IMG/VR virus record: IMGVR_UViG_3300045125_000156
Reading direction: 5' to 3' (one strand)
DNA from: a virus
Length of the DNA: 64,000 nt
Shown in pieces: positions 353 to 61,969 of the stretch. The notes beneath the pieces are model-generated. The model worked only from the letters and a program-made list of their open reading frames with translations, made no database searches and was not told the DNA's origin. Positions within the stretch are counted from its first letter, which is position 1; every line of letters begins with the position of its first letter. Made by a program: the position numbers and the translations under genes.

Positions 353-1385
353 TCAGCAACGTGGTGCACCGCGTTGCTCTACCTTTTTGTCTGGATACAA
401 CTGCTCCAGAGCAGCGCAGCAGCTGACGCGGAAGCCGGTCAGAAGCAACGTCTCGCCGAATGAGCTGCTAATTGAGACCTCAGCAGCTGGTGCGGCCGTT
501 GTTTTGCGCGAGCCATGCGGGAGCCCTTTCCGCCGCTTGAGGCTTACAGGTCGTACCTTGCGCTTCTTCTTCCGCTGCTCGACAACCTCTGCGCCTACGC
601 TGCAGGCATCAACGTAGCCACAGTAATCGCACTGCCACCCGTTTCGGGGGTCGCTTGTTGTTCGTCGATCAGTTGAAGCTTCCGCGCCGACTTGTTTAAG
701 TAAGTAGCAAGCCAGGTCCGCAATCCGACTACGTCCTCTCGGGTCCAAGCCCAGGTCGCCGTTCTCGCGCGGAAACCAATCTACGCTGTCAGTGCCGATA
801 TAGTTGATCCCGCACTGCACCGCGTGCACCGGAAATTGGCCATGACCATGAGCATGTAGGCGTAGAACTGCGTTGAGTGCTCCTGAATCCGCTTCTTTTT
901 CCGCTCTTGTGATCGAGGACGATCATCACGTTATCGCGGGTAATCATGGCGTGGTCGAGCACTCCGCGCAGTAAGCCCGTATTGTCAAGGACGTACGCGT
1001 AAAGTCAGGCTTGATTGCCAGCTGGTGCTCGACAAACTCCTGGGTTACGCCGTGCGTCTCCTTGAATCGACGAATGCGCACGCCGAAGTCAGCAATGGCC
1101 GGAAGCCTCGTCAAAACTTCTCGATGCTCGTCGGTGGTCAGCTCGTCGCGGGCGGTGACATCGGTGAGCATCTTGGCGAGATCTTGCCCGTTCTGCTTGA
1201 GTTCGGCTTCCAGCAACGCGTGAGCAGCAACGCCAACCCGCGAAGAAGCTCTTACGGCCCTCCTTCTGCTTTCGCACGTACTTATAGTCAAACTGCACTC
1301 CGCAGAGATCGAGAAGGTTCGCTTTGGAGATAGACCACGGCCCGTGCTTCCAGAACGCGCTCGTCAAACATTTTGTCCCCTTCAC
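353..1385 (-). CDS. PD-(D/E)XK (Cas4/RecB-like) exonuclease, split by indels
   Basis: Consecutive frames give PWSISKANLLDLC..F.YKY, GVAAHALLE, VEHQL, LDHKSGK, TQFYAY and C-terminal WQCDYCGY..C, the ordered motifs of this family. Confidence 0.8.
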
Positions 1386-1485
1386 GCCGTGAATTTACGG
1401 CCAGATCAATCTAGCGAAAATAACCAACGGGAAAAGCCCCGAGGTCGCACGGGGCGACCTCGGGACTCTCCATACTCATCAGAGG

Positions 1486-2607
1486 TTATTCTTGCTGTAG
1501 TCCGGCAACGCCCCGGCAGCCGCCATCATCGCGGCCATGTCCGCCTGGGCGTTGAGAACGGAGCGCGCCCTTGGTAGGGCGGTCGTAAACCGAGCGCAGC
1601 TCGGGGGCATAGGCCTCGTGGAGAACGAGGCGCGCGAGCGTGCGGAGAACGCCGCGCTCTGCCGCTGTGGTCGGCGCGCCTTGCGGCGCATCATCGGTGA
1701 CGTGCGGAGTGGCCGTGAGCGAGAACCAACGGCCCTTGTCGTTACGCTCCTCGGCGACGCCAAGGTCGAACCACGCGTCCCAGGGCCGGCCCTTCTGACG
1801 GCGGATGGGCTCAACAGCCCTTCTTCCAGGCTTTGACCCTTCACGGTGAGGGCATAGAATGCCCTTGAAACCGTGAAGCACGAAGTAGATTCGCGCCTCG
1901 TCGGTGCAGCTGTCCGGGCGCCCATTTGCCGTTGGCGTACGGGCGGTGCGGACACGCAGCGCAGCCGCCATAACGGCTGCCGCGCACACGGTCGAGGAAT
2001 AGCAGATCGGCGCGCTTGCTGTTCCGGGTTCATGTCCGGAGGGACGGTGGAGCAGGTCATTCGACGAGAGCGCAGCTGCCGCGTCGGCCACCTGCAGGAT
2101 CGCAGCCTTGAAGGTCTTGCCGATCTTCAGAGAGCGGGCCTGCGCCTCGTTGAAGGCCGCCAGCACGAGGCCGTCGGAGAGTGTAAGCTGAACCCACGGG
2201 GCGGTTGCCGGGCGCGCGGGATCGTCACCCACGCCGTGATAGAGGGCTTGCAGCGAGAGGGATCTTGAAATCCACTCGCGCCGAGACAAAACCCTCGCGC
2301 ACCGGGTTGAGGCTGTCGATCATGTTGTTGAAAGCACTCCTGATCCTGCTCAGGAAGCGGCACGACCAATCGCGATCGAGGCTCGCCCTCTTCGGGCGCA
2401 CTCGTCACTAAAAAACAGTTGCCGGATGGAAGCTTCGGCAAAGCGTCTCGCCAGTCGGGAACGGCAAGCGCCGCCTCAGGCGCTCAGGCTCAGGCTCAGT
2501 GGCGGCCTCGACGACCGGAGTTCGGCACTGCTACCGGCGCGGTCTCCTGGGTGGTGATGGTCACGGGTGCCTCTTCGAGGGTGTTGGTTGGAATTTTTCG
2601 TAGCCAT
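1486..2607 (-). CDS. Hypothetical protein, possibly ssDNA-binding or recombination; frameshifted
   Basis: ATG at 2607 with AAGGAGG SD; overlapping ORFs 2127-2441, 1486-2289 and 1479-2060 appear to be one gene. Aromatic segment NDKGRWFSL and position in the replication block only weakly suggest the function. Confidence 0.35.
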
Positions 2608-2660
2608 AGGGCCTCCTTGCCTAACCGAAGCTGGGCGGGTAGATAATAAGCTAAGTAGCC

Positions 2661-3483: not shown

Positions 3484-4545
3484 TCAGCCCTCGGCTTCTT
3501 CCTCAGTCGCGATGGACTTCGGAAGCGCCTTGAGACCGGACGCGAGCTTAAGGCCGTCGAGCTTGCCGCGCTCGTAGGCGAGCTTGGACTCATCGACGTT
3601 CTCCCTCGACCGCATGCGCGAGATCTTCGCGTCGATGGAGTTGAGCAGCGCCCGGAGCTCAGCGGCCTTGACGATCGCGATGGCGTCGAGCGCGTACTTC
3701 TCCTCAGCCTCGGCCTCGACCTCAGCCTCGGCCTCAGTCTCCAGCCTCGCCGTCCTTCTTCGCCTTCTTCGCCGCCGCACGCCTCCTTGGCCGCCTTCTC
3801 GGCCGCCGCGAGCTTGGCCTCCAGGCGCTTGGCCGCCTCGTCGATGTCGTCGGCGGTCCAGCCCTTCTCGATCGCCTTGACGGCAATCGCGTATTGCTCG
3901 TCCCCATCCTTGACGGCCTTGAGCGGCGCGGATCTTCGTGCCCGTGCCGGGCTCAAGCTGGCCCTTGCGGACCATCTTCTGCACGCGGTCGTCGCAGTCG
4001 AAGACCGCGAGGTACTGCGAGACCTTGCTGTCGGCGACGCCGAGCTCGTCCTTGATCTGGGTCTGCTTGAGGCCGAACTCGTCGCGCAGCGAGCGCATGT
4101 AGTTCGCCTCGTCCCAGAACGAGAGGCTGCGGCGCTTGATGTTCTCGACACCGCAGGCGATGACGGCCTGGAGCAGGGTCAGGGTCTTGATGTGAACCGG
4201 GATGACCCGGTTCTTGTCGTTCGCGGCCGCGATTGCCGCGCGAACGCGCTGCCGGCCGGCAACGATCAGAGGCCGACCTTGCCGGTCTCCCTTGTGGCGA
4301 ACCGGGGTGACGAGCGGCGGCTGCAGGATGCCGTTCGCCTTGACGTCGTCCGCGAACGACGGCTCAAGCTTGATGTTCTCCGAGTCCGCGCGGGAGTCGA
4401 AGTTCGGAAAGATCAGCGAGTTCGGATCGACGTTGTCGGCGGTCTTGGTCGCCTCCAGCATCTCGAACGGAAACGTGTCGACGGCGTCGACGGTGGGGGT
4501 TGCGGCCTTGCGGGACTTCTTGGGGGTGGTCTCAGTCGTAGTCAT
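3484..4545 (-). CDS. parB: ParB/Spo0J-family protein (ParB N-terminal domain, HTH, acidic Ala/Glu-rich tail); one frameshift near 3930
   Basis: GILQPPLV, IVAGRQRVRAA (GxxRxxA motif), ENIKRRSLSFWDEA, and HTH GLKQTQIKDELGVADSKVSQYL; strong AGGAGGAG SD. Confidence 0.85.
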   Translation of the reverse strand: MTTTETTPKKSRKAATPTVDAVDTFPFEMLEATKTADNVDPNSLIFPNFDSRADSENIKLEPSFADDVKANGILQPPLVTPVRHKGDRQGRPLIVAGRQRVRAAIAAANDKNRVIPVHIKTLTLLQAVIACGVENIKRRSLSFWDEANYMRSLRDEFGLKQTQIKDELGVADSKVSQYLAVFDCDDRVQKMVRKGQLEPGTGTKIRAAQGRQGWGRAIRDCRQGDREGLDRRRHRRGGQAPGGQARGGREGGQGGVRRRRRRRRTARLETEAEAEVEAEAEEKYALDAIAIVKAAELRALLNSIDAKISRMRSRENVDESKLAYERGKLDGLKLASGLKALPKSIATEEEAEG

Positions 4546-5045: not shown

Positions 5046-5531
5046 TCAAATCTCGTCCTTGAAATCTTCGGGGTCCTTCCCGAACTCCTCGATCGACGGC
5101 GCGACCTGCACCCGAGAAAAACGATCGCGCGCTGGCTGATGCTGTGCCCGGGCGGGGTCAGGGATCTTACGAATGAACTCCTGGCTCTGCCCGACCATGG
5201 CTCGGATCGACTTCTCGTTTTGTAGGCGCTCCGGAAGAGTCTCTACGGCGTCAAGCACGCGATCGGGTTCGTTGCGAGCTTCTCGCGGCGGCGAGGGCGG
5301 CGGTTCAAACCGCCCGGCGCCCCAGGGCGCCGGTCCCGGTTCAGTCCGAGCTGGCGGTAAATTCACGGCGTGAACGCGGATGCCATCAACTTCTACGCTG
5401 ATGGTGCCGAGCTCCTGGTCGTAAAAGAGCCCGAACATCTCGGTGTCGGCGTCAGGTACTTCAAACCCCTGGCGCGTCAGATACTCACGAACCGCGAGCA
5501 GCACGTCATTCTGCGTCAGTGTGATCTTCAT
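5046..5531 (-). CDS. Hypothetical protein
   Basis: Intact 161-aa ORF (MKITLTQNDVLLAVREYL...) with GAGG SD, in an operon with the helicase. Confidence 0.65.
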   Translation of the reverse strand: MKITLTQNDVLLAVREYLTRQGFEVPDADTEMFGLFYDQELGTISVEVDGIRVHAVNLPPARTEPGPAPWGAGRFEPPPSPPREARNEPDRVLDAVETLPERLQNEKSIRAMVGQSQEFIRKIPDPARAQHQPARDRFSRVQVAPSIEEFGKDPEDFKDEI

Positions 5532-7470
5532 GGTCCCTCAGTACGTTGAGATACGCGGTGTTTGCCACCGGTTTAGCCACTTCAGCGCCGTACTTACAAC
5601 CCCTGCGGAAAGGGCGAATCTCGTCACGGGCGCAGTCATTCATACGCTCACAAGCCGCGCATGAAATCCGCTCCAGCATGGTGTACGCCACGTTATCCTT
5701 AAACGCGAGCGTTCTCGCCAAAAAGCCGTCTAGCGCCTGGGGGTGCGTGGACAGCAGGCGGTAGACAACCATGTTGCGCGTCTGTCCTGGACGATTATTG
5801 CGCTCAAGCGACTGCTTGTAGTGCGTCAGGTTCCAGGTCAGCGCGTAATAAATCATGTAATTTGCGGCCGTCAGCGTAACGCCGACACCGGAGCTTACCT
5901 GCCCGATGTACACCCGGCAGATCGGATCTGTTTGAAATTTGTGGCTCAGCTCCTCAATACGGTGCGTCGTGGAGCCGTCCACACGGACGTAGCCGTAACC
6001 AGATTCCGAAACGGCCGTCTCGATGTCATTGAGCTCCTCAAGGTACGTCCCCCAGACGATGACCTTGTTCGTGTCATCATCAGACAGCACGTTACCCAAG
6101 AGCTCTTTGAACGTCGCAAGCTTCGGGTTGGGGAGTCGTTTTATGGCCGTAGGAGGTTTTCTTTGTAAATGTGACACCGCTCCGTGTACGGGCGCACCCC
6201 GTTTTTAACGCAGCCCTGCACATGCTCGCAGCCGTCACAGACGAGCGGATCGGCGCCCTCAATAACGAAGCCTGAAACTAACTGCAAGAGCTTATTGACA
6301 AGAGCGCCACCGTGCGGGGTAGAAACTCCGCGACCGCGTAAAGCGTTGGACTCGGCGTACGCAGCAAAATCTTTGAGCCGCGCGATGCTGGCGTCATACT
6401 CCCGCGCTTGAGCCGAGGACAGGTCGAAGGGTACGTCAATGAACGTAACGGGCGGGAGGTCAATACACTCCTTCTTTTTCATGCGCGTCGCGATGCCTTC
6501 GACGCGCGCGTTCAGTTCATCCAGGTCGCGGTAGCCGTAGACCTGGTGCTTATTGAACTTTGAATAAACAAAGTGTTTTTGTTGATACGCATACCAGGGC
6601 ATGGGCATAAGCGCCGGCGAAAGAAAGCGCATCTGTGCATAGAGCTTGCCCGGATGATCCGCCGCTGTCCCCGAGAGTAAGTAGCGTCGGCACGCCTTGG
6701 CTGAGAGTGTCAGCGCCGCCTGCGTCTGGGAGCTTTCGTAGTTCCCGATGGAGTGGGACTCGTCAGAAGCAATCACCTGGTAATCCAAGTCTTTCAGGCG
6801 CTTGGGGTGTTTATTTTTGGGTCGAACTCAAGCCGCGCTCGCGCGTAGGAGAGTACAACTACGTCGGCGGTCTGGGCCGCCTCGCGTAACTTTGTCGGTG
6901 CCGTCCCAGATAACGGCGCGCAAAGCGCTCTGCGAGCAGCGGCGGACTTCGTTAACCCACGTAGGCAGCACTACCGGAGGCGCCAACACCAGCATGCGCT
7001 TGAGCTCGGGATTTTCACGGCGTGAAAGCCGGAAGCCGTCGATCATCGTACGCGTTTTGCCGGTGCCCATCTCCCAGAGGAAGAAAGAACGCCACCACGC
7101 GGCGATGCGGCGAATGCCTGAGTCTCTGGTGCCGGTAGGGCTCAAACCCCTTGGGGAATTCAAAATCTTCAGGCAGCTCGACATCTTCATCACGCCTGTA
7201 CGCCGACTTGGCGGTCTCCCAGACTTTGTGGGAGGCCTGCAAGTCCTTTATGAAAGAAAGCGCAGAATCAGTCCACTGGAGATCGGGGACTAAAACTTTC
7301 AGATCGTGCGCTGCCGAAAGGCCGAAAGGATAGTATGCTGGAAAGAGCCAATCGGTTCCTGACTGCACGGCGCCGATTACGCGCCGCCAGGGGTCAGGAG
7401 ACACGCTCGTGGGCGTGACTCGCCAGATGGGCGTAAGATTCAGGTGCTGACCAACAACGCTGGGTGCCAT
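5506..7470 (-). CDS. SNF2/SF2 DNA helicase, frameshifted
   Basis: PYRHQ (Q motif), WEMGTGKT (Walker A), IASDESH (DExH), LLSGT, and C-terminal SSGVGVTLTAAN and YKQSLERNNRPGQ motifs; ATG at 7470 with AAGGAG SD. Confidence 0.9.
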
Positions 7471-9174: not shown

Positions 9175-9776
9175 GCGACGACTTCGGGAAATTCATTGAC
9201 CAGGCTCAGACCGCCGACCGGGTGGAGAGCCGGTTTGCCGGGCTTGAATCCGAACTGGAGGTGCACGCCGGCGCCAAGAAGAAGGCCAAGTACACCTACG
9301 AGTGCCGGGTTTTCACGGTCTTCCGGCCTTGGCAGGAATGTCACCGCTGTCAGAAAGCGTTTCGCCCAAAAAAGAACGCAGAAGGCCAGTGGGAAGACCC
9401 GGACCTGCAGATGCCGGAAGACGAAGACTTTATCTGCCCTCACAACGAGATGGAAGAGTACACGACGCTGGTCAACAAGATTTCACGGGGTGAAGCCCGC
9501 CTGATCCGGCGGTCCCTTGAAACTTTGAAGACCGGCGTCGTGCAGGCGCTGCTTGAATGGGGCGAGCCGAACTTCTCGAACAAAAGAAGAGTCAGGAGCC
9601 GTTTCCACGGCTCTGACTCTCCCGCCTCACTCGTCCGGGGTTACCTACGAGCGAGGCGCCGTTATAGCGCGATGACGCTCTCCTCCCAGGCGTTCTCCTG
9701 GGGAGGGCGTCGTCGGCGAAGAACTGAGACCAGTTCTTCTTCTCTCTCCTCTCCTTCCGCCATTCCTGGCGGTTGA
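9171..9776 (+). CDS. Hypothetical protein with CxxC and ICPH motifs
   Basis: Start overlaps the upstream stop (ATGA); ECHRC and FICPH; the 3' end is probably frameshifted. Confidence 0.55.
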   Translation: MSDDFGKFIDQAQTADRVESRFAGLESELEVHAGAKKKAKYTYECRVFTVFRPWQECHRCQKAFRPKKNAEGQWEDPDLQMPEDEDFICPHNEMEEYTTLVNKISRGEARLIRRSLETLKTGVVQALLEWGEPNFSNKRRVRSRFHGSDSPASLVRGYLRARRRYSAMTLSSQAFSWGGRRRRRTETSSSSLSSPSAIPGG

Positions 9777-9921: not shown

Positions 9922-12900
9922 ATGACCCAACTCACGCCCGTGCTCACCGACGCAGAAACGCTTCGCGGAAAGATTCACGAGAAGGTCACCGGCGCGCTCG
10001 CCAGCGTGTTCCCGATGGACCTTAAAGGGCGGACGTTGGAGGTCAAAGACCTGAAGGTGCACCATCGCGACTACTCGTCCGACGAGCAGAAGAAAGCCCT
10101 GCTGAGCGGCGACTCCTGCAGACACCTGTGAAGGGGACGTTGGTGCTCAAGGGCGCCGATGGGCGTGTGATCGATGAGGCGAAGAACTTCACCCTCGTCC
10201 ACATCCCGTACATGACGCCACGGCACACCGTGATCGCGGACGGCAACGAGTATCAGTTCGCAAATCAGATTCGCCGCAAGCCCGGCGTGTATACGCAGCG
10301 CGCCGAAAACGGAGAGCTCAAGACGATCTTCAACACGGGGCGCGGCAAAAACTTCGATCTCGGCTTCAACGAGGCCAAGGGAACGTTCTCGCTGCAATAT
10401 GGAACGAGCAACATCCCGCTCTACGCCGCCTTGCGGGGCTTAGGGGTAACGCACGACGAGATCTCCAAGCATCTCGGAGAAGGCGTCGCCAAAGCCAATC
10501 AAGTCGCGCACGAAAAACACATCGAGGCCGCTACGGCCAAGCTCTATCAGAAGCTTGAACACCCGGCCGTTTACGACCCGAAGCTCCCACACGTCGCCAA
10601 AGCCGAGGCGATCAAAAGAAGTACAGCATCGCGACGCTTGATCCGGCAGTGACCGAGCACACGCTTGGGCAGGCGCATGACCGCGTAACGCCGACAGCAC
10701 TTCTTCACGCCGCGAAAAAGATGCTCGCCGTGCACAACGGCAAAATCCCGGTAGACGACACCGACTCTCTCACCTTCAAGACCTTCCACGCCGTCGATGA
10801 CTTCCTGGCCGAGCGCATTCGTCTGACAGCGCGCACATGGGCGCCAAAAGCCAAGATGGCGTTCAGCGGCAAAAGCAACATTCGTGAAGCGCTGCGCCCC
10901 GCGCCCTTCTCGGACTCGATCCGCAAGTTCGTGACGACGTCGTCTTTGACGGCCGTACCTAGCGGGATCAACCCGCTGGAGCTCATGGATCACGCCGTGA
11001 AAGTCACGTCGCTTGGCGAAGGCGGGATCTCGTCTGACCGCGCAATCCCGCTTGACGCCCGCATGACGCACGCGACGCACTTCGGGGCGTTAGACCCGAT
11101 TCGTACGCCCGAAAGCGGATCGGCTGGTGTAGACATCCGCGCGACCATTGCCGCGCACCGCGATGACCGAGGAAACTTCTACACGGCCATGAAGGACGTG
11201 AAGACCGGGAAACAAGTCTTCATGCGGGCCGGCGACCTCGTCAAAAACGTCGTGGCGTTCCCCGGGCAAAACCTCAAGGGGAGCGTCAAAGCGTTCGTCA
11301 ACGGGAAGATTGAAGAAGTGCCGGGCTCACGGGTGACGCACGAGATGCTGCACCTGTCGCACCAGTACTCACCGGCGACGAGCCTCATCCCGATGATTCA
11401 CAACATCCAGGGCAACCGCGCGATCATGGGTTCCAAGATGGGGACTCAGGCGCTACCCCTGCTTGATCGGGAGACGCCCTACGTCCAGGTAAAGAGCCAT
11501 CTGCCGGGCGAGGTGTCGTTTGAAAAGGTCTACGGGCATCTGACCGTGCCGACATCGCCGGTCAACGGAACCGTAGAGAAGATCCAGGACGGGTACATTT
11601 ATATCCGGCCACATGGGGAGAAGAAGGCCGAGGACCGCCCCGTCATCGAACAGAAGAAGCTCGGGCCGCACACCTTCAACCTGGAGATGCTGCGCCACCA
11701 GTTTGAGGACGCTCCTGGTATGCTCACGACCCGATCGGGCAACTGGGACTACGGCCATCTACCCGGCTACACGGGGCCTGATGGGGACTCCCTCGACTTC
11801 TTCGTCGGCGACCACCACGACGGGCACATCTTCTCGTTCGACAAGCAGCGCAACGACGACGGCAAGGGCTGGAAGACCACGGACACGAAGTTCGTGGTGG
11901 GCGTGACGCCCGAGCAGAAGGCTGAGTTCCGTCGCCGCCAGGCCGTGTACAACTCTGGGCCCGCACCCATGCGGCACACGAACATCCGAGAGTACAAGGA
12001 CTGGGGCCACCTCCAGCGCCACATCGACGAGCACTTCAAGAACGAGAAGAGCGCCGCTGCCAAGGACGACGGCCTCATCAAAGTCCCCTACGAAACGAAC
12101 TTCCCGTTCCCCTCAAAGACCTACCTGCATCACGACATTCAGGTAAAGCCGGGGCAGACAGTTCAGCAGGGGCAACGCCTTGGCGACTCGAACTTCACGC
12201 GCAACGGCACGCTCGCGCTCGGGAAGAACCTGCTCGTTGGGTACATGGCCTATCACGGCTTGAACTCCAATGACGCCGTCGTCATCAGCGAAAGCTGCTC
12301 CAAAAAGCTCACCAGCGAGCACATGTACCGCGAGATCTACCCACTCGTCACAAATCGAGCTCTCGCGCGACAAGCACAAATCCTATTACGGCACCAAGTT
12401 CACGCCGCAGCAGTACGCGAAGCTTGATGCTTCCGGCGTGATCAAGCCCGGTACGCGTGTTGACCCGAAAGACCCGCTCGTACTCGGGCTGACGCGCGCT
12501 CAGATTCAAGGGCAAGACCTTCTCCTTGGGCGCATCTCGAAGTCGCTGACCAAGCCCTACAAAGACGTCGTGCTTCAATGGGGGCACGGCACCCCCGGCG
12601 TGGTCGTTGAAGTCCTCCGAAGCTCGGGGCAGATCGCGATTTTGATCAAGACCCAGGAGCAGATGCAAGTCGGCGACAAGCTGGCCGGGCGTTACGGGAA
12701 CAAGGGCGTCGTCGCGAAGATCGTCGCTGATCACGAAATGATTAAGGACGAGAAAGGACGCCCGCTCGATCTCATCCTGACGTCCGCTGGCGTCGTAAGC
12801 CGCATCAATCCCGCACAGGTCATCGAAACCGCCGTCGGCAAAGTCGTCGAGAAGACGGGCAAGCCCATTCTCTACGACAACCAGGAGCACAAGGACGCCG

Positions 12901-14840: not shown

Positions 14841-15432
14841 CATGTTGAGCGGGAGCCTGACTTCGACGTCGATCAAGCGCCCAGGCGAGCCAATGATTCA
14901 CGCCGTGAAAACGGAAGGCCCGCTCGGTAACCTGCTGAAGTCGATGGTCCCTGGGCCCTCGATGCACGCGATGCTCCGCGACATGGTGCCGTCGTCGATG
15001 AGCGGCGATGATTGCGGCTGCGACAACGTAGAAATCTTGAAGAAGCTGTCGTCCAAGAAGTACCAGCTGATCCTCGCGTACATTCATTACGGAGATCAAC
15101 TACGGGCGCTCTACCGGGACCGGCATCTACGAGCACTTTCAGGGCACCTGGAAGAAGAGCGCTCCCAGCTCTATCAGATCAACAAGAAGGTCACCGCCCT
15201 GGGGCATGACGCACCTTGTTGTCCGGGCGAAGTGCCGCCGGTGCCGCTCAACGACGCCAAGGCGATTTTTCGTGTCGCCCTGAAGATCGAAGAAGAATCG
15301 GTGCAACTCTGGTCCGATCTTTTCCGTCAAACCGACGACGACGTCGCCCTCAACGGCATGGCCCAGACGTATGCCCAGGAGTGCCAGGGGCACGCAGACG
15401 ATCTAAAGCGCTATCTGCGGAGCTGTGAATGA
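14821..15432 (+). CDS. Ferritin-like (bacterioferritin/Dps-like) four-helix-bundle protein
   Basis: Helical pattern AYIHYG..., HLEEERSQ...KVTALG, IEEE...W..LF, AQECQGHADDL with the E/ExxH spacing of ferritin-like folds. Confidence 0.65.
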   Translation: MNRKLADMLSGSLTSTSIKRPGEPMIHAVKTEGPLGNLLKSMVPGPSMHAMLRDMVPSSMSGDDCGCDNVEILKKLSSKKYQLILAYIHYGDQLRALYRDRHLRALSGHLEEERSQLYQINKKVTALGHDAPCCPGEVPPVPLNDAKAIFRVALKIEEESVQLWSDLFRQTDDDVALNGMAQTYAQECQGHADDLKRYLRSCE

Positions 15433-17635: not shown

Positions 17636-18177
17636 CCTCAAGATCTTCACGCCGTGAAACTAGCCGCCGAACGCCGATATTGGCGTCATACGGGCTGCAC
17701 AAGCTCGCGAACGCCCCACCTGGAATTTTTAGGCGCGCGGCTAACCGCCTATTTCGATATCGCCAGGGAGCCCTCAACGAAAGCACCGCCCGAGGCATCG
17801 TGGGGAGTGTTGGGGACATGGCCCGCGACATGATCTTTGGAAGCCCCCTGTCGCTTAAAGACCAGCTATTAAAGCACCGCGCCGAAACTGGCGGCTGGGG
17901 GCAAGCAATTGCCCGGCACTTTGGGGAATTTTATGTTCCCAGATCAACTGGCTCGACAACCATGGACGTCGTTAGCCGGGGCATGAGCTTAGGTTTTCCG
18001 GCCTACGAGCTCTATGGCGCAGCCACTACCGAAAACCCAGAAGTGCGCCGCCAGCGCATGGCAGGGGCTCTGGCAGGGCTTGCAGCCGCGCCCATAACCG
18101 GCTACTTGGGTTTACCAGGGGCCATTGCTTCAAGCGCTATCTCAAATCTTGCAAGCAAAGCGGTAGCAAGAACCTAA
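17633..18177 (+). CDS. Putative internal virion protein (K-x-A leader, Gly/Ala hydrophobic segment)
   Basis: MPQDLHAVKLAA, HKLANA and AGALAGLAAAPITGYLGLPG; frameshift near 17680. Confidence 0.55.
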
Positions 18178-36051: not shown

Positions 36052-36109
36052 AGGTTCACGCCGATGAAATGGCGCCTATCCTTGACGACGAACCTTCGGA
36101 GAACAGCAC

Positions 36110-39043: not shown

Positions 39044-39620
39044 TGAGCCATTATCAATATGACCACCTCCTAATCCAGCATTTTGAAAAAAATGCAGGGT
39101 TTGGAAACGTCATGTGGCAGGGCACCAAGGCCGTAGGTCGCGGCGCCATGCACGTAGGTCGCGGCGCGTTGGGCTTTGATGCCAAAGCGGGCGCGGGTCT
39201 CAGTGGGCGCATTTTAACGGGCGCTGGCGCTATCGGGGGCGCCGTCGCGCCCGTCGCTGCTGGCGCCTTGCAAATGAGCAATACGGGCCGGGCGGTCACA
39301 GCTTCACTCCGTGAAATGGGCCACGTGCACAACATGCAGAAGCATGCGGAGCACGGGGTGCTTCATAAAGCGCTACACGTCGCTCCCTACCTGGGCTGGG
39401 CCGGAAGTCATTTATTGGAAGATACGGCCGTCGGCAAAAAACACCCGTGGCTTCCAAAAGCAATAAGCACCGCGTCCTACCTCGGCTTAGCAGGAAATGC
39501 GGCCCATGACGCGTACACAAACCCCCAAAGAGCGAGTCACCGGGGCCGTAGACGCCGCCGCACTTATGGCAATGCTCGGGGCCGACGTTGCACGTTGGCG
39601 CCGCCCAGCGACTCCAGGCC
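39044..39620 (+). CDS. Putative internal virion protein (K-x-A leader, Gly-rich hydrophobic segments)
   Basis: MSHYQYDHLLIQHFEKNAG, MQKHAE and GAGAIGGAVAPVAAGA. Confidence 0.55.
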
Positions 39621-44338: not shown

Positions 44339-46437
44339 ATGAGTGAGCCGAGCGCGCCTCACGGCGTGAAAATCCTGACGGCGATGGGCGAGATGATTTT
44401 GAGAATACACCGGCTAGAGTTACTGTCCAAACTTGCCCGCGCCAAAGCGCAAATGGACGCGATGGCCCAGGCCACAAAGGAGTCCCCTCGTGACATGGAC
44501 ATCGGAAACTCCGAGCGCTCCTGAGGCGCTGACGACAATCGGCAATCAAATCACTGCGGAGTTAAACAGCGCCGCTACCACTTTGCGCACGGCAAGCGCG
44601 GCGGCAAGAGCCGCATCTCTTTTCGCGCTGCAGCAGAAGAGGCGGCAGCTACCTTTAGCCAACCTCGCCATTCAAACTGCAATCCGCACGATAAACGGCT
44701 TATTGGACACGTTGCTCGACTCAACCGGCGTTTACGTACTGCCCATCCCGCTACCGAAGCTAGGACTCGCCAAATATTTTCCCACAGATACTCCGCCTCA
44801 ATACAGTCAGTCGTTGTTGGCCCGCCCCAGCGCAGAAGGACAACAGCTCATCAGCGCGCCGACCAATGCCCTAGCCGAACGGCTACCGGGGGCGGCGCAG
44901 GGAGACTTAGAGCAAAACCCTGTCTGGCAGCAGTTCATCAACCCCTCGTCGATGATGCTGGGTGGGAACCCTTACATTCTCAAAACAATCTCAGAGGCCC
45001 TGTACGACCGGCGCGACGTGAACCGACCAAGGCTCACAGGGACCGCGTACTGGGGCTACATGCTCAGCGTCGCCGGGGCGAGCGATGTCACGGCCCTTAT
45101 GAACACGGCTCTTTATTTTAGTCGGTTAATCCGATCCTTAGGGAACAGCAACACCGTCTCCCCTGACGCCGGGCTGTCAGACATTGTTCCTGAAAACGTG
45201 ACCGCCACCCTGTCCGGCCGTGGCGGATTTGCCGTAATCCAATGGGATCCGATCGCCGTAAGCCGGACGCTCCGCAGTTATGACGGCTCTACCGTCACGA
45301 TTACAAAATACGCCGTAATCCGCGCCAAAGGTCTTCAGGCGCGCACTGCGCGCGGAACCGAAGAGCTGTTTACCGGCAACGCGAAAGAGCTGACGCAGGG
45401 GCAGCGGGGTCTGTTTGACGCAGTTGTGCTCAAGGTTGCCGACTACGACAGCGTTACGACGCGGTATGTCGACGAAACCGGACTCGAAGAGAACGCGACG
45501 TACTACTACTTCGTAGCCTTTGCTACAAAAATAACGCCTGCGATTCCGCCGGTGCTTGACGTAAATAACCAGCCCCTGCCGGGCCAGCTGACAACTCAAA
45601 CCCTCGGATTTAGCCGGCTGTCGAGCGCGGCCGAGTTTCGCAAACCTTCACCGCGTGAAAACCCCCAGCTATTGAACGTAAACCGCCTCGGGACCGCGCC
45701 GGACTGGATGAAATGCGCCGGCGCGATTGGCATGGTGCCGCCGCTCAATCGGTTCATAGGACAGCTGCAGGAATTCCTGAATGGGCTAGCGTCCAGGGCG
45801 TCAAACCTTTCCACGGTCAACAACCAGTACATCGCGTTCTTGAATCGCCAGGTCGCGCTCTACGAGAGCCGGGCCACGAGATCTCTCAAAAAATACAAAA
45901 CCTCACCCGCTATTTTGACCCCGGGCAGCTACAGGCCGGACTCCATACGACATTTCGAACGGGCAGCGGCGCTGCCCCGAGCTCGTGGCGGACGTTGCCA
46001 TCGCCCTGGGCGAAAGCAACGATCCTGATTGGCCGCCATTTACTCAAGGCGATGAGTTCGTTACTGGCTTCATGGCGCTGGCCGTCGCCCCAACGCAGCG
46101 GCGATAGACCCCGTAATCGAACTTCTGAAGCTTCTCTTTGCGCCAACAGCGGATGCTGACCCGTGCTCCAGGGAATCGAGTCGATCAACACGGACCTTGC
46201 GGCAGCGGAAGCCAACCTTATCGCGCAGGTACGGGGGTAGCGGCTTGCCCGCAACGCCGGCGAATACATTCAATCAGACTTGACGCCGCGCGCGCCTGGG
46301 CAGGGAGACTCGACGTGCGATTGAAACTGACTACACCCGTAGGCTTTTGCGAAGCCAACACCCTCACAGGTTTGCTCTGGGAAGTAATCCGCCATAGGTT
46401 CGAGCACCTTTTGGCCGGAGATGGATGGGTAGACTGA
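44339..46437 (+). CDS. Putative baseplate or tail proteins (small ORF 44339-44524 plus a large frameshifted ORF)
   Basis: Long ORF 44433-46028 with an Fn3/Ig-like segment (VIQWDP..Y.V.R..YVDE...YYYFV). Confidence 0.5.
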
Positions 46438-48219: not shown

Positions 48220-49033
48220 ATGTCGCTCGTCATCAACGGCAAAAAGATCGAGACGCCCGGGCTGCAAACCATCTCGTGGCTTGACGATCCGAAGATCCCA
48301 AAAGCTGCAGACTTCAATCCGCGCGAGATGTGGATTCGCGCCATCGTTCTTCACATGGTGCACGGAAAATCCGGCCGGCTTCTTCCGGGGTTCTCCAAGC
48401 CCTCGTCCCGCGCTAAGGGCTACGCGCGATACCAGGCCAACACAGCGCGCAAGGTTTCGTGGGACTACACCGTCGGCACCGATGGGACGATCATCGCATC
48501 CAACGACCCCGTCAAAACGTACACCTGGCACGCGGGGACGTGAACCCCTACACCGTTGGTATCGAGTTCGTACAAGAAGACAACGGCGATCTCTACGAAG
48601 GCCAGATGGACGTCGTCGTTCGTTTTCTCGACGTCCTCACGCAGAGCTAGCTGACGCCGGACACCCCATCCAGCGGCAGGTGCCCATGACCTCCAACGGC
48701 GAGCCGGTCAAGGGTGTCATCGCTCGCATCGAAAATAACGACAGCGCCAAGCAGGTTGTCGGCATCTACGGCCACCGCAACCAGACGGGGCAAAAACCTG
48801 TCGGCGACCCCGGAGACGCCGTCTTTCACGCGCTCCTCCGCGCCGGCTACAAGGGCTTCAACCTCGACGCCAAAGACGACGTCACTTTCTGGAAAGACGT
48901 GCAAACGCGGCTCGGCGTATCTCCCGCTGACGGCATCCCCGGGCGCGCGACACAGCAAGCGCTCCTCAAGGCCGGCAACCCCCACGGACTCTGGGTAGAG
49001 CGCCCCCGGAGACCGCTGATTTTCACGACGTGA
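48220..49033 (+). CDS. Endolysin: amidase_2 N-acetylmuramoyl-L-alanine amidase plus peptidoglycan-binding domain, frameshifted
   Basis: AIVLH, SWDYTV..DG..WHAG, NPYTVGIE, YGH...K..DPG; C-terminal VQTRLGV..DGIPG.AT..AL. Confidence 0.85.
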
Positions 49034-49053
49034 AAGCCTACACTTAGAGCACC

Positions 49054-53139: not shown

Positions 53140-53646
53140 CTACTCTTCACGCCGTGAAACGATCACTCGTCTGTCGGAAGTCCCGCGCATGCGCGCATAG
53201 AGATCCGGCAAGCGGTTGACCGCTAGTCCGCCTGCGGCTCCAGCGAGAGTCGCCCCGCCAGTGATGGCCAGACGCTTTAGCAAAGCATTGCGGGCAAGGT
53301 TATATCTAGTCGGCGATACTCCCGAAAGCGGCGGGTCGGGAAGCTCGCTATACGCCTGCCTTAGCGCGGGAAACGTCAGGGCCCCCGCCCCGATTCCGCC
53401 CACCCCCATAAGCGCCATGTCCCGGCCGCTCAGCAGGGGCGCAGCTTCTTCAACTTCTTCAGCGGCAACTTTGAAACGATAGTGTCCGACCTTCGGCATT
53501 GGCGGCCTCATTGCGGTTGAAATGGAAGTAGGCGTCGGCACCGGCGGCATCGGCGGCGGAATGTTCGCCCCCGGTGATGGCCCACTCATCGCCGGCGTGC
53601 CCATGGGCTGCGGCATCATGCCGCCGTTGGTCGCGTGTTTTCTCAT
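53140..53646 (-). CDS. Putative internal virion protein (K-x-A motifs, Pro-rich region, glycine zippers)
   Basis: MRKHAT, FKVAAE, GVGGIGAGAL and GGATLAGAAGGLA. Confidence 0.65.
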   Translation of the reverse strand: MRKHATNGGMMPQPMGTPAMSGPSPGANIPPPMPPVPTPTSISTAMRPPMPKVGHYRFKVAAEEVEEAAPLLSGRDMALMGVGGIGAGALTFPALRQAYSELPDPPLSGVSPTRYNLARNALLKRLAITGGATLAGAAGGLAVNRLPDLYARMRGTSDRRVIVSRREE

Positions 53647-55330: not shown

Positions 55331-55334
55331 AATT

Positions 55335-55592
55335 TCACGGCGCGAAACCGCTGAACCGGGAGACCTCGGGGGCGACGTCGCGGACGCACCGCTCCAGGTC
55401 CTCGGCGCGCCCCGTCCGGCGAGCAGCGTCCGCGGAGGCGAGGCCCCGGGAGTGCCGTGAGAGCAGATCGGCAGGATCGGCAGCCAGCCGAAGGATCAAC
55501 TCGCTCAAAAGCCCAAGAATCGCGCCCGACGCCGCCAAAGGCAGCGCCGAGTTTGGTGCGACGTCTTGAAACGCGATCCCAGTACCCGTCAC
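55335..55592 (-). CDS. Small membrane protein
   Basis: ALPLAASGAILGLLSELILRL hydrophobic helix. Confidence 0.45.
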   Translation of the reverse strand: MTGTGIAFQDVAPNSALPLAASGAILGLLSELILRLAADPADLLSRHSRGLASADAARRTGRAEDLERCVRDVAPEVSRFSGFAP

Positions 55593-58306: not shown

Positions 58307-58530
58307 CTAGTTGGCGAGACGCACGCGCGTCTCCGGTTCGAGCGAAGATCCTGTCGCCTCCAGAGGCTCGTCGGCTTCCCGGATTCGCCCGAGGTCGCGC
58401 GCACGATGGCAACGGAGACGGCGCAGGCTGCCGCAAGTTCGTCGACTCGACAACCCTTGGGGCTGGATTCGAGAATTCGAAGAAGCTTGACGACAGCGCG
58501 CCTGGGCGCGGAGGCAGATTTCACGCCGTG
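58307..58530 (-). CDS. Small winged-HTH protein
   Basis: LLRILESSPKGCRVDELAAACAVS resembles an HTH_11-type N-terminus. Confidence 0.45.
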
Positions 58531-61500
58531 ACAATCCCTTCGATTACCGCACCAGCCGGAATGCCTCCGATGCTCGTCGCGTTTCCACGTGTGCCGGCGG
58601 TCGTGCGGTAATAGTAGGTGGTGACCGTGCCGCCCGGGTCGAGCGTCACGCCGTTGCGCGGCGGTGCGCTCCTGCCGCCGAACGCGACGCTGGGGTTGCC
58701 GTGGTGAAGCCGTTGTAGGTGGCCATGAAGACCTCAGCTCAGCGTCGGGGTGGAGGAGTCCCAGGGCACCCAAACGCCCGAGGCGTAGATCCAGTGCGAG
58801 AGCTCCCGTCGACGAGCTTGTCGCCGTTGGCGCGACCGCCGCCACGCTGCACCACCGCAGCCGCGAGCTGTAGCCCACCCACCCGGTCGACGTGCTTGAG
58901 GCGCCCGGACGGGCAACCGGGATCAGGAAGGGCACTTCCTGCCCCCGGAGGGCGTCTGGCCGATCTGCGCGCTCGTCGTGTTCGCGGCGGGCGCGGTTTG
59001 TGAGCCCGACTGGTCGTACAGGATCTGGAACGACACCCGCGCGTTGGCCGCAGCGGGAATCCAGCGCTTTTGAGCGATGATCGAGCCGCCCGCAGTGACC
59101 TGAAATTGCGAGCCCACCGCCGTCAGGCCCGTGCTGTTGTAGTAGCCGACCCAGATGTGTGGGTCGGTGTCCTCGCTCGCCGTGGTGCCGCTGAGCATGG
59201 GCTCGTCGGCGAGGAAGGTCAGCGTGTTACCGCCGCCCAGCGTGATGGCAAAGGCCGTCCATCCGTTGGGGCTCGCGTCGTCGACCGAGACGAACCACCG
59301 GCCGGGCGTCGCGGAGAACAGCGACGCCGCGCCGAAGAGGGCCGTGGCGTCGCTCGCGGTGCCCGCCGTCGTCGCGCTCGGAGAGCCCCCGGTGAAGCCC
59401 GCGATGGAGCGCGACACGGTCCACGTCGCGTCGCCCGAGCCGCGCTGGAAGAGCCACTCGCGCGAGCCGCCCGGTGCGGCCACGGCGGAACCACGGCGCT
59501 TGAGTTGCCGAGATTGCCCGCGCCGCTGCCATATCCGGTGCCGCTGAAGGGGGTGCCCCATAGGGGTTGTTCGTGAGGTTGACGTTATCGGCAGACAATC
59601 CGTTGGTCAACCCGCCAGCGTTTGTCCCGACAAGCCCATCCGACCACCTCTTCACGATCCAGCCGCCCGCGCAGAGCTGCGTGAGCAGGGTGTAGATCGC
59701 GGCAGTGCCGTTCGCCGGGGATGTTGTGTTCGCGATGATGGCCATGTCTCAGCTCCAGGTGATTCGTAGCGCCGCCGAATTCACGACGACGTAGTCCGGC
59801 TGCGGTGCCGCCTGTTACCGACGCACGAAGCCTCGTAGGTCTTCGCTGGACTCGGTGACGAAGGGGTGTGAATGCCGCTGTGTGCGAGGTCGCGGCGGTC
59901 GTGGACGTAACCGAAACCGTAGCGACTGCCGACGCTGCCACGTCTCGATAGACTTGAACCGCCATCGCATCAACTCCACGTCACTCGAAGATTTACGCCG
60001 TAGACGAGGGCATAATCCGCTACCGCCCCGCCTGATTTCTTGAGACGAAGTTCAAACACTTTTGCGGCCGACGGCGCGGCTACGGGTTCAGTGTCAAACG
60101 TTGCCGTTGTTGTCGTGAATGTCGTCGTTGCCGCATCTGCCGCATCCGTAACGTTATACAACGTTATCATACCGGTGACACCTGCAACAACTTGTCCGAT
60201 GAACTCCAGCGAGAGCACCGTCGACTTGTTCGTGATTGCATAGCTGCTGGGGTCGAAATAAATCCCGCCAAGAACAACGTCGACTGTCGAGGTCGTGCTC
60301 GCAGCCGGCGCACAAACAGGCAACAGGATCACCGTTGACGCACGCGGCGTTACCCAGACCAAGATTCTGTACGCGCCGTCGCAACGTCAGCCGACGCGAG
60401 AAAGGTCGAGACGTCAGCGTTGGTCGTGGTGAAGGCGCTAACGCCATCCGAAATGATGGCAGTGCCGGCGGGCTGAGAGCCGAGCTGTGCGTCCAAAACG
60501 TCACTGACGAGATCCCCCGCCAACTTGGTCGTGTAGGACGTCCCGGCGCCGGTGCTAATCAGGACTTCGTCGGCGGCGGTGGCGGTCGGAAACGCCGCGC
60601 CGGCAATCGCCCAGACCGCTGTGGGGTCCTCGTACTCTCCGCTAACAAGGACGAGCCCTTGCCCGGCTTGCAGCGGAGAAACGGCCTCCCCGAGAAACGT
60701 AAGCGCGCCCCGATTGAAGTTCGACGCGCTGATTGGCGTCCGTCGCCCGGGTCAAACCCCACGTAGTGCCATCGTAGGTCGATAGCACGATAGATCCCGG
60801 TGGCCTCATCCGCTGCCGGGGGTCCTGATGCGATCGACGTCGAAACGACCATCACGCGCTACGCGGTTCGTGAGCGCAAGCGGTACGCCGCAGTTTTGAT
60901 TACCAGCTACAAGGAGGTTGTACGACGCGTTGACGATTTCAAGGACGTGCGGGGTGTTGCCGTAATCCCAGCCGACGCCTTTGTCCGTATCCAGAAGCCG
61001 GACTACCGTTCTGGACGCTCTCATGGAAGTCATACCCGCCAGCCGCCGCCGTGATTTGCGTGGCTAGCGACGTCCCATTGAGAAGCGTGCCCGCCGGAAG
61101 ATCAACAGCGGCGTTGAGCTTTATCGCCGGTAATCAGGCCGTTGTCGAGTTGATTGACGTCGGTGATAAGGCCGTCGGAGGCCGTCTTAAAAGAGGTAGC
61201 TCGTGGGCATCTCAGGCCTCCTTTATTGACGCGCTGTAATTCACGGACGTGCCAACGAGCAACTCTATATCAATAACGAGATCACTGCCGGAAATAGTGT
61301 AGACGAGCGGCAGAGGATTATAGATCCCGCCGCCCCCGCTCGTCGACACCACCAGATCGATCTCTGTGGCCGCCGAATCAATCATCGCTCGAAGATAAAC
61401 CGATCTCTGCGGCTGCCGGGCCGGTCTCTTCAAGCGCGAGATTGATCTCTACGTTCCGGTACCCCGTAAAGCCCGTCATGATCCCGGGGAGCGTCACCTG

Positions 61501-61703
61501 GATCGGGCCTGAGGCGTTCAACGCGCCTGTAGTGCGAACGGGCAGTCCCGGAGGCGTTCCCCAGACCGGCTGCGCGCCGTCTGATACGAGCGACTCCCAG
61601 CGGGCGCGATTGGCAGCGGTACCCAATCTGCACCGTCAGACTAAACCAGGTCCCCGGCGGCTTGGCCGGGGATGGCAAAGACAATGGTGCGGCTGATCAG
61701 CAT
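58530..61703 (-). CDS. Cluster of tail-fibre-like or structural genes (about 58530-59745, 59750-61030 and 61212-61703), heavily frameshifted
   Basis: Thr/Gly/Ser-rich beta-strand proteins with repeated TLYNVTD..AT...T.T-type modules. Confidence 0.5.
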
Positions 61704-61969
61704 GCAGGAAGGATAAGATTCACGGCGTGAAAATAAAGCTACCGAGGGATAACTTCGACCGGCACGGGCTGTCGCACCCGATGCATAACATCGATAACGT
61801 CATTCGCGAAGTCACTGAGGTCAGGTGGAAAGTGTAGCTTCGGTTTGGCGCCTTGCCCCGGCACCCCCACCAAAAATTCCGGAAGAAACCGCCCCGGGCG
61901 CTTCAAGTAGTAATTCTTCGCCTGTCGATGGAAAGGCGCGACGCTGAAACAGGGGATTTCCCTCACGCG

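Follow-up and report, generated by a model that had tools for sequence, protein, structure and literature searches.

An array of evenly spaced palindromes in a large uncultured freshwater phage, with a ParB-family protein as its candidate reader

The palindrome and its sites

The window analysed here, a 64,000-nucleotide stretch of the virus record IMGVR_UViG_3300045125_000156, comes from a large uncultured freshwater phage in which a 15-base palindrome recurs at an average of one copy per ~2.7 kb. Near its left end lies a ParB-family gene (3484..4545, minus strand) with an N-terminal CTP-binding fold (GRQRVRAA and VENIKR motifs) and a ParB HTH. A family A DNA polymerase, a PD-(D/E)XK nuclease and an SNF2 helicase are encoded beside it, and a sigma70-region-2 protein and split RNA polymerase (RNAP) subunits nearby. 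No integrase was seen in the sequences searched.

The core of the motif is TTCAC-N3-GTGAA and its full form is tTTCACGnCGTGAAa, symmetric as 7-1-7 regardless of the strand of the local gene. The motif was confirmed as real in the window, where TTCACNNNGTGAA is matched exactly 17 times (0.04 expected) and, with one mismatch allowed, 24 times (1.4 expected), ~7 of the 24 being near copies. Enrichment is limited to a spacer of 3, spacers of 0-2 and 4-7 giving 0-1 exact matches each, and no second conserved element was found within 45 nt of the sites on either side. Altogether the density is ~25 sites per 64 kb.

The sites were compared with those in three relatives: G001 (130.7 kb, ~85% nucleotide identity, including the region of the window), G003 and G004. 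The intergenic exact site at 1381..1393 (TTCACGCCGTGAA) is exact at the aligned place in G001 and G003, the intragenic one at 5362..5374 (TTCACGGCGTGAA) is kept in G001, and a further TTCACGGCGTGAA within the SNF2 helicase gene (7014..7026) is kept in all three relatives with differing spacers. At 9482..9494 (TTCACGGGGTGAA) the G001 copy carries one mismatch. Two near sites lie in the RNAP beta gene; the one at 10704..10716 (TTCACGCCGCGAA) is identical in G001 and absent from G003 and G004, and the one at 10989..11001 (ATCACGCCGTGAA) is kept, mismatch included, in G001 and G004. The exact sites at 14897..14909, 17646..17658 (spacer GCC in the window, GAC in G001) and 31230..31242 are exact in G001 and G003, and that at 33992..34004 in G004 as well. 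The near site at 21165..21177 (TTCGCGGCGTGAA) is the same in G001, while G003 has instead an exact site ~730 bp away. Exact sites at 23095..23107 (TTCACCTCGTGAA) and 25818..25830 are exact with altered spacers in G001, and the exact site at 27626..27638 falls within a 1,085-bp insertion (27425-28509) that G003 lacks. The remaining exact sites lie at 39303..39315 (TTCACTCCGTGAA), 41576..41588, 45647..45659 (TTCACCGCGTGAA), 49022..49034 (32 nt upstream of an ATG; exact in G001, spacer GAC changed to CCC), 53146..53158 and 61719..61731 (intergenic), and the remaining near sites at 44358..44370 (CTCACGGCGTGAA, intergenic), 55334..55346 (TTCACGGCGCGAA) and 58520..58532 (TTCACGCCGTGAC). A weak match at 48350..48362 (TTCACATGGTGCA) has two mismatches in G001 and is probably a chance match outside the array. 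As for variant spacers, the site at 3472 showed no conservation in the relatives, and that at 52952 is conserved in the 85%-identical relative and in no other.

Spacing and conservation of the array

The initial annotation had proposed that the palindromes are regularly rather than randomly spaced, and this was borne out on an unbiased list holding every match with at most one mismatch in the window: the coefficient of variation (CV) of the intervals between these 24 sites is 0.45, whereas sites placed at random give 0.96 (P 1e-5 to 2e-5). For the 17 exact sites the CV is 0.47 against 0.95 (P 7e-4), and the probability of a minimum interval of at least 1652 bp is 8e-5. Exponential intervals, which a Poisson process would give, were rejected by a Lilliefors-type KS test (P 0.0014 and 0.0019). 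The pattern is one of mutual avoidance among sites (gamma shape ~2-13) and not a strict 2.7-kb lattice; long-range periodicity was looked for and none was found, and ~2.7 kb is no period but the average of intervals that vary widely.

The 23 sites of that annotation, namely the 17 exact sites, the near sites starting at 10989, 21165, 44358, 55334 and 58520 and a spacer-4 site at 36055..36068 (TTCACGCCGATGAA), were reproduced exactly (minimum interval 1289, maximum 4124, mean 2743 bp). Its own caveat that sites might have been missed was apt, with 10704 left out along with the weak 48350, which the close relative does not conserve; the 1289-bp minimum is correct for its list and somewhat flattering because of these omissions, 10704 lying only 285 bp from 10989. 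Counting 36055 was justified, since the site is exact in G001 and G003 and the window copy has a 1-bp insertion (a relic or an assembly indel).

The full-genome scan that had been suggested was run on the relatives, and even spacing was again found. G001 holds 39 exact sites (CV 0.55) and, with the near sites added, 53 (CV 0.44; P <= 1e-5 for both), G003 has 18 exact sites (CV 0.27) and G004 has 17 (CV 0.52). The complete 172-kb genome G002 carries 80 sites of a changed motif, TAC-N3-GTAAA, with an interval CV of 0.66 (P 2e-5 to 1e-4) and one interval below 500 bp against 16.4 expected. Evenly spaced arrays were also seen in G010, where TTCAC and TTTAC half-sites are freely combined, hetero-sites included, and in G005, the motif of whose lineage is TTTCC-N3-GGAAA. 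The G002-type motif is asymmetric; in G002, G007 and G008 the arm GTAAAG is strong and kept and the opposite arm is degenerate.

Base by base, the arms changed at 1 of 160 positions between the window and G001, against a background of 15% (P 2e-10), and the spacer at 5 of 48. In the comparison with G003, all ten arm bases are kept in 6 of 6 aligned exact sites (P 3e-10) at a local identity of ~69.5% (~30% divergence). The one-mismatch sites of G001 occupy the gaps that exact sites leave (pooled median 1343 versus 819 bp, P 0.003). These substitution patterns indicate purifying selection on the arms as a DNA word while the spacer drifts. Between the TTCAC clade and G002, in turn, only 0 of 14 and 1 of 33 aligned sites occupy orthologous positions. 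As these sites are not orthologous and both the site density and the shortage of short intervals nevertheless persist, even spacing is selected rather than inherited. The comparison thus shows that the motif has changed between lineages and the positions have turned over with the spacing retained, and that selection maintains the spacing in the relatives although the sites have moved.

With respect to genes, 70-75% of the sites are intragenic; they occupy many different places within genes, use two reading phases, and in some cases lie deep in long genes, beyond the first 3 kb. About 26% lie in the ~6% of the DNA that is intergenic (~4-fold enrichment); 5' parts of genes are also enriched, and site centres are over-represented 10-25 nt upstream of start codons. 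A link to gene starts is therefore possible for a subset of sites, and weaker coding constraint would account equally well for the intergenic and 5' enrichment. The layout of genes does not account for the spacing: when each randomly drawn gene receives one site at the observed gene-start offsets, the CV is 0.86-1.19 against the observed 0.27-0.66. The array thus resembles a feature of the DNA on the scale of the whole genome more than a collection of operators for particular genes; to this extent the earlier preference for a structural role is partly supported, and the enrichment at gene starts and between genes qualifies it.

A candidate reader and the alternatives

The ParB-family gene scores above the TIGR00180 cut-off, and its alignment matches include Thermus ParB, Caulobacter ParB and Noc structures. 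All lineages keep its GxxRxxA and ENxxR motifs unchanged. Each large contig has exactly one ParB_N gene in conserved synteny, and a ParA partner was looked for in the phage contigs and not found. Residues aligned to Caulobacter ParB 173/179/184/201, which we take to be specificity positions following the ParB/Noc literature (RTAG/QKKR residues; a +10 numbering offset reproduces R-T-A-G in chain 6t1f), read D-Y-D-G in every TTCAC genome and N-Y-E-Q in G010 with its mixed motif; the three TAC-N3-GTAAA genomes have E-(Y/V)-K-(G/Y), and the TTTCC-N3-GGAAA genome has A-H-K-G. The predicted base-contact residues therefore seem to vary along with the motif, a co-variation that spans four lineage groups only and is confounded with phylogeny, because any protein that evolves fast would follow the clades in this way. 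Acidic residues, as in the two D positions, are unusual for base contacts. The half-sites are those of parS set 3 bp further apart, a geometry for which no ParB is known.

Since even spacing is kept by selection despite the movement of sites, the copies are most likely docking sites from which a phage protein would cover the whole chromosome. We somewhat favour the reading in which they would dock a phage-encoded dimeric DNA-binding protein, likeliest the lone ParB-family CTP-switch protein. The symmetric palindrome and the G010 hetero-sites count in favour of a dimeric reader with independent half-sites. The asymmetric G002-type motif was counted among the points against ParB, and the enrichment near gene starts and in intergenic DNA could instead indicate a transcription-linked reader.

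It is possible, if doubtful, that the array is real and selected and that its reader is another dimeric DNA-binding protein, of phage or host, with ParB a bystander. Palindromic symmetry with independent half-sites would suit any dimeric HTH or RHH protein, the majority of genes in these contigs lack an assigned function, and the 5-3-5 layout is reminiscent of matS/MatP. In Cluster O mycobacteriophages, moreover, the authors drew no link between the repeats and a ParB-like gene (PMC4351075). Against this, no recognisable sequence-specific DNA binder other than ParB was found in every lineage with a contig spanning the region, the half-sites match those of parS, and the recognition-helix region of ParB changes along with the motif. 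A host reader is unlikely because close phage lineages differ in motif.

We regard as improbable that the sites are transcription elements for the phage multisubunit RNAP and its sigma-like factor (L5-stoperator-like operators or roadblocks, promoters, pause sites or terminators), with the spacing reflecting transcription-unit size. The sigma70-region-2 gene, the RNAP subunits and the bias towards gene starts and intergenic DNA would fit; the intragenic majority, the symmetry relative to gene strand, the absence of a partner box, a hairpin with no T-run after it and the failure of the random-gene null to yield such even spacing do not. Even the asymmetric G002 motif is oriented independently of gene strand (32 with, 21 against). 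A role in DNA metabolism (priming or nicking, Chi-like recombination or nuclease attenuation, packaging or ejection signals) is quite improbable. The 2-3 kb spacing is within the Okazaki-fragment range, the neighbours of ParB are replication and recombination genes, and a palindrome would function from either direction, but known primase, nick and Chi sites are short and asymmetric or unevenly spaced, and the sequence gives no pointer to a cognate nuclease or primase. Least probable of all is an mRNA hairpin (5-7 bp stem, 1-3 nt loop), for although the inverted repeat is foldable and most copies are transcribed, the arms are invariant in sequence rather than paired through compensatory changes, conservation is equal on either strand relative to the gene, the stem is lost in G002, G007 and G008 with GTAAAG kept, and the G010 hetero-sites TTCAC...GTAAA put a C-A mismatch in place of a C-G pair.

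In the ParB reading, for which we infer dimer binding, the binder, the rationale of a sliding clamp and the biological purpose, the candidate target would be TTTCACGNCGTGAAA. A ParB dimer would read both half-sites, TTTCAC/GTGAAA, and then close as a CTP-bound clamp that slides or spreads a limited distance. Selection would favour one loading site per 2-3 kb and disfavour redundant neighbours, and as a result all phage DNA would lie within ~1.5 kb of a site, with even coverage. The purpose would concern the whole genome rather than the control of individual genes, and may be compaction into a phage DNA body, marking of self DNA, shielding or KorB-like long-range control of transcription.

Comparison with known systems

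Chromosomal parS (TGTTTCACGTGAAACA) occurs as few sites clustered near the origin and serves ParA-driven segregation. The phage system shares with it the protein family, the CTP motifs and the TTTCAC/GTGAAA half-sites, and differs in the 3 bp of additional separation, the far greater number of sites and the ParA that was not found. Noc of Bacillus subtilis, a paralogue of ParB that has no ParA partner, binds and spreads from ~70 palindromic NBS sites dispersed over the chromosome (about one per 60 kb) and tethers DNA to the membrane via an N-terminal helix. It resembles the phage protein, whose sequence matches include Noc structures, in lacking a ParA partner and in having dispersed palindromes; unlike the phage motif, NBS has no 3-bp spacer. 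The G005 motif is similar to the NBS half-site, just as the window motif resembles the parS half-site.

The stoperators of mycobacteriophage L5 and Cluster A phages number some 24-30 per genome, each 13 bp long and all recognised by a single phage protein; they are summarised in PMC4351075 as asymmetric, transcription-oriented, mostly intergenic and belonging to a temperate phage's repressor. In the phage described here a 13-bp site likewise recurs many times along the genome, but its copies are symmetric and mostly intragenic.

The nearest published cases are the KorB-OB network and the Cluster O mycobacteriophage repeats. KorB is a ParB-family CTP clamp that slides from its operators to act at a distance, has ParA (IncC) and KorA as partners, and uses 12 OB operators (TTTAGCSGCTAAA) on the IncP plasmid RK2, about one per 5 kb and mostly near promoters (PMC11790492). 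Both systems scatter a 13-bp odd-centred palindrome over the whole replicon. The phage sites are twice as dense, mostly intragenic and evenly spaced, ParA was not found, the replicon belongs to a large phage (roughly 170 kb or more), and binding is predicted. Cluster O phages such as Corndog carry more than 30 copies of a 17-bp dyad repeat, TGTTCGG-N3-CCGAACA, many within ORFs, with invariant arms and a function given as unknown; ParA is absent and a gene with a ParB-like domain is present, whose product the authors thought unlikely to be involved in genome stability (PMC4351075). A genome-wide inverted repeat with a free 3-bp centre and invariant arms, no ParA and a ParB-like gene are thus common to both, whereas the sequence and the phage family differ (Cluster O phages are ~70 kb siphoviruses). 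The even spacing, the turnover of sites and the change of motif between lineages described here are absent from the Cluster O report (PMC4351075).

The palindromic word and the phages that carry it

The palindrome TTCAC-N3-GTGAA occurred in the window as 17 exact copies against 0.04 expected and as 24 copies when up to one mismatch was allowed (1.4 expected), and 3 bp was the only spacer length enriched. Alignment of 73 sites from the relatives gave the full word as a symmetric 7-1-7 palindrome, tTTCACGnCGTGAAa; the word proposed as the target of the ParB-family protein is TTTCACGCCGTGAAA. The 23 sites of the initial annotation and their interval statistics were reproduced exactly, as 17 exact sites, five one-mismatch sites and a spacer-4 site at 36055, which is an exact site in the related contigs G001 and G003 and has a 1-bp insertion in the window. 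All 23 were thus recovered, but that list had missed a site at 10704, 285 bp from that at 10989, and a weak match at 48350. Two further variants were seen, namely TTCACGGTGAA at 52952-52962, which has exact arms with a 1-bp spacer and is conserved in G001, and a spacer-0 near-copy at 3472, which is not conserved.

No close relative of the window was found among cultured phages by megablast, the nearest cultured relatives of its RNA polymerase beta-like subunit were only 35-37% identical, and no cultured phage encoded a close homologue of its ParB. DNA near-identical to the window was present in lake and freshwater metagenome runs of more than 10 studies. Four related IMG/VR contigs were drawn on most. 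The window's region is contained in G001 (130.7 kb, ~85% nucleotide identity); the contigs G003 (51.7 kb) and G004 (51.0 kb) are ~69% identical to it, as is, in conserved genes, G002, a complete genome of 172.4 kb with direct terminal repeats.

The window encodes the beta-like (10649-12427) and beta'-like (13225-14439) subunits of a split multisubunit RNA polymerase and a ParB-family protein (3484-4545, minus strand), and comparison with the relatives added a family A DNA polymerase, a PD-(D/E)XK nuclease, a sigma70-region-2 protein and an SNF2 helicase. The sigma70-region-2 protein (273 aa; window ~2660-3480, plus strand; placed through the homologous G001 64388-65209) is arranged tail-to-tail with ParB in 4/4 lineages examined and may be a specificity factor for the phage RNA polymerase. 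Inside the beta-like ORF, an inorganic-pyrophosphatase-like stretch was noted at 11750-12010 (residues 366-452), its PF18823 score of 24.5 bits falling just below the cut-off of 26.8. Other repeats in the window are a GC-rich tandem array of ~5 units of 33 nt at 55970-56167 (unit GGCGGCGCAGGCGCAGGCTGTGGGGCGGCTCTC) and two direct duplications, 19465-19694/19756-19985 (230 nt, 92% identity) and 18543-18680/20016-20153 (138 nt, 72% identity), both within or beside a 404-aa ORF at 19105-20319.

Gene calling covered 64% of the window with ORFs, compared with 92-96% of the relatives, and yielded 90 short genes in 64 kb as against 132 in the 130.7 kb of G001. In the alignment to G001 (85% identity), gaps of 1-2 bp occurred by the dozen in every 10 kb, and fragmentation is exemplified by the ORFs at 3484-4545 and 12270-13313; the middle of the window's ParB is an Arg/Gly-rich stretch where the G001 counterpart has a normal helical linker. 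The fragmented ORFs and the Arg/Gly stretch are probably assembly indel errors and not biology. An alternative genetic code left no clear signal, and the 1-2 bp indels explain the short ORFs better. Because of this fragmentation and the many indels, the gene context of the sites was read from the relatives and not from the window.

Spacing and conservation of the sites

The sites had been described initially as evenly spaced, and this was tested in the window on lists set by rule and not by eye. The coefficient of variation (CV) of the intervals was 0.47 for exact sites, compared with ~0.95 under random placement (P 7e-4), and 0.45 for sites with up to one mismatch (P ~1e-5), while an exponential distribution of intervals was rejected for two site lists (P 0.0014 and 0.0019). 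The regularity therefore held in the window, and extension to the relatives, the complete G002 included, showed non-random spacing there too. G001 had 39 exact sites (CV 0.55) and 53 with up to one mismatch (CV 0.44), G003 had 18 exact sites (CV 0.27) and G004 had 17 (CV 0.52). Random placement and exponential intervals were both rejected in these three contigs. Since the majority of aligned sites are orthologous, the three do not provide tests independent of the window.

G002 contained no TTCAC sites. It carried instead 80 copies of TAC-N3-GTAAA (consensus yKTACGSCGTAAAG) against ~1 expected, with a CV of 0.66 (P 2e-5 to 1e-4) and a single interval below 500 bp where 16.4 were expected. When site positions were compared through protein alignments and a match was defined as lying within 40 nt, none of the 14 aligned G001 sites had a G002 counterpart, and only 1 of the 33 aligned G002 sites had one in G001. 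The two clades share no site positions, yet in both the density is maintained and sites stay clear of one another, which argues for selection on even spacing itself. Such an array would show that in a virus genome selection acts on how a DNA word is spaced and not on its presence alone.

Four further contigs gave comparable values: G010 with 10 sites in 22.8 kb (CV 0.35), G005 with 12 sites of the word TTTCC-N3-GGAAA in 29 kb (CV 0.49), and G007 and G008, both with the G002-type word, at CV 0.67 (P 0.007) and CV 0.78 (P 0.07, not significant alone), respectively. No fixed period between 0.8 and 6 kb outdid interval-shuffled controls, and the intervals were gamma-like with shapes of ~2 to 13, which implies mutual avoidance of sites and not a lattice.

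The arms of the word are strongly conserved. Against a background of ~15% differing positions, comparison of the window with G001 showed changes in 1 of 160 arm bases (P 2e-10) and in 5 of 48 spacer bases. All six exact sites aligned between the window and G003 retained 10/10 arm bases while their spacers differed (P 3e-10 at ~69.5% local identity). Two sites found only in G003 (22681 and 31872) have near sites in the window a few hundred bp off, at 21165 and at 10704 and 10989, respectively. A 1,085-bp segment of the window (27425-28509), shared with G001, is missing from G003, where its flanks abut at ~15054; it holds a perfect site at 27626, and this is where G003 goes longest without a site (4485 bp). 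The pooled median distance of one-mismatch sites to the nearest exact site was 1343 vs 819 bp (P 0.003), most of this difference coming from G001, whose one-mismatch sites fall in the gaps between exact sites.

A candidate reader of the sites

A dimeric DNA-binding protein is the likely reader, given the symmetry of the word, its invariant arms and its free centre. The half-sites TTTCAC/GTGAAA are those of parS, and the half-site of G005 is similar to the one in the Noc site. A single ParB_N gene is present in every large contig, and its synteny is conserved. The window's ParB matched ParB_N and TIGR00180 (58.7 bits, cut-off 58.45) and, for its helix-turn-helix (HTH), PF17762 HTH_ParB (34.2 bits, cut-off 22.6), and it can be aligned to the solved structures of ParB and Noc over the CTP-binding domain and the HTH (1vz0 and 6t1f for the HTH). 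Its N-terminal ParB/Srx CTP-binding fold includes GRQRVRAA (GxxRxxA) and VENIKR (ENxxR), motifs in which G97, R98, R100, E134, N135 and R138 are invariant across seven lineages, and a C-terminal block, KLAYERGxLDGL, a candidate for part of the family's dimerisation domain, is conserved in the ParB of all lineages. No ParA (PF13614, PF01656) was found in the complete G002 and three contigs of 119-131 kb, the controls being matched in 14/14 genomes.

The half-sites TTCAC and TTTAC are interchangeable across the 22.8 kb of G010 (L060-L061, IMGVR_UViG_3300015606_001684), and hetero-sites such as TTCACGCCGTAAA occur, which suggests that each half-site is read independently. At the ParB residues aligned with Caulobacter ParB 173/179/184/201, the TTCAC genomes have D-Y-D-G, although their ParBs are only 60-64% identical, G002, G007 and G008 have E-Y/V-K-G/Y, and G005 has A-H-K-G. 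G010, with its mixed motif, has N-Y-E-Q, in which N and E are intermediate at two predicted base-contact positions, and by its sites and residues it looks like a relaxed intermediate, occurring in nature, in a shift between the specificities of the two main motif types. The co-variation of residues and motif, in four lineage groups and confounded with phylogeny, agrees with ParB as the reader.

A metagenome scan with the ParB alignment picked up mainly generic ParBs from unrelated organisms, along with only five loci of this phage family, all of the TTCAC type, so that the co-variation comparison was not enlarged. Complex prediction for ParB and the neighbouring sigma-like protein scored 0.00 and counts neither way. 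A separate, unrelated contig of 38.5 kb, found through a weak ParB-like match (G009; L062-L063; IMGVR_UViG_3300032163_000049), has ~9 copies of the 8-bp palindrome AGGATCCT against ~1 expected.

The best-supported hypothesis, towards which we lean with some reserve, is that the evenly spaced sites would serve as loading sites of a ParB clamp, spaced to cover the whole chromosome. It is quite possible that the sites are read by a protein other than ParB. A broader picture, which we consider doubtful, is that large uncultured phages use a ParA-less, ParB-type CTP clamp, loaded at dozens of even sites through their genes, that coats or condenses the whole chromosome to mark, organise or shield the DNA or to couple it to phage transcription; reader and sites would co-evolve fast and leave sister lineages with incompatible 'chromosome codes' (TTCAC, TTTAC, TTTCC), G010 being an extant intermediate. 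If the link to ParB is true, CTP-clamp biology would extend beyond segregation and plasmid silencing to the organisation of whole chromosomes, and in phages without sign of a temperate lifestyle. With three variants of the motif and a mixed intermediate, these phages offer natural material for studying the joint change in specificity of a DNA-binding protein and ~80 dispersed sites.

Relation to genes and comparison with known systems

Of all sites, 70-75% are intragenic and use reading phases 1 and 2 only, phase 0 being unused because a TGA stop would arise in either orientation. The phages accept a coding cost, as the word imposes H-x-V-K/N or S-R-R-E peptides on many proteins. The sites are also enriched ~4-fold in intergenic DNA (~6% of the sequence) and enriched in the first 40% of genes. 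Gene structure was rejected as an explanation for the even spacing: a null model that put every site into a different random gene, with offsets sampled from those observed, gave CVs of 0.86-1.19, against which the observed spacing was still significant (P 0.003 or less). The initial proposal of a structural and not gene-specific role is thus partly supported, by the mostly intragenic location and the failure of gene layout as a cause, with the gene-start and intergenic bias standing against it. Weaker coding constraint near gene starts can explain that bias, but the bias does give scope for a transcription-linked role of a subset of sites.

The possibility that the sites are promoters, terminators or stoperators in general is disfavoured by their mostly intragenic position, by the symmetry of the motif when oriented by gene strand and by the lack of a partner box, no second conserved box being found within 45 nt on either side, so that a composite promoter was rejected. 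Stoperator-type sites would be asymmetric, oriented with transcription and mainly intergenic; the motif here is symmetric and 70-75% intragenic, and even the asymmetric motif of G002 is oriented independently of gene strand (32 with, 21 against). An RNA hairpin is likewise disfavoured, as one arm is degenerate in G002, G007 and G008 and the hetero-sites of G010 break the pairing. A role in nicking, priming or packaging is a further, remote alternative.

In canonical ParABS systems the parS sites are 16 bp long, their half-sites abut, and the few copies present form a cluster close to the origin or the par locus. The array was not assigned to this type, as ParA is absent, spacer-0 sites (abutting half-sites) are not enriched and the spacer-3 sites are spread genome-wide and not clustered. 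In the ParB-activated thymine dioxygenase (5mYOX) pathway, a TET/JBP-type dioxygenase is encoded together with a ParB that has no DNA-binding domain (PMC13229309). This pathway is unlikely here, as the window's ParB has an HTH and no TET/JBP dioxygenase (PF12851) was matched in G001 and G002, a weak result since the control genomes gave no match either.

The closest published analogues of the array appear to be the KorB-OB network of RK2 and the repeats of Cluster O mycobacteriophages. RK2 reportedly has 12 OB palindromes, from which KorB clamps act at long range. As in that network, one palindrome is distributed across the replicon of these phages and a ParB-family gene lies on the same replicon; KorB is a ParB-family clamp on its sites, while binding and CTP sliding by the phage ParB are candidate activities only. 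Cluster O genomes carry more than 30 copies of TGTTCGG-N3-CCGAACA of unknown function, together with a gene for a ParB-like domain and no ParA (PMC4351075). The phage array likewise consists of tens of inverted repeats, within and between ORFs, whose arms are invariant and whose 3-bp centre is free to vary. The Cluster O report makes no mention of even spacing, of turnover of positions with kept spacing or of motif switching between sister lineages (PMC4351075), and our literature search found no description of these three features for phages. If arrays of this kind serve to load a ParB-type clamp across the genome, the Cluster O repeats, so far without an explanation, and the present array would share one that can be tested.
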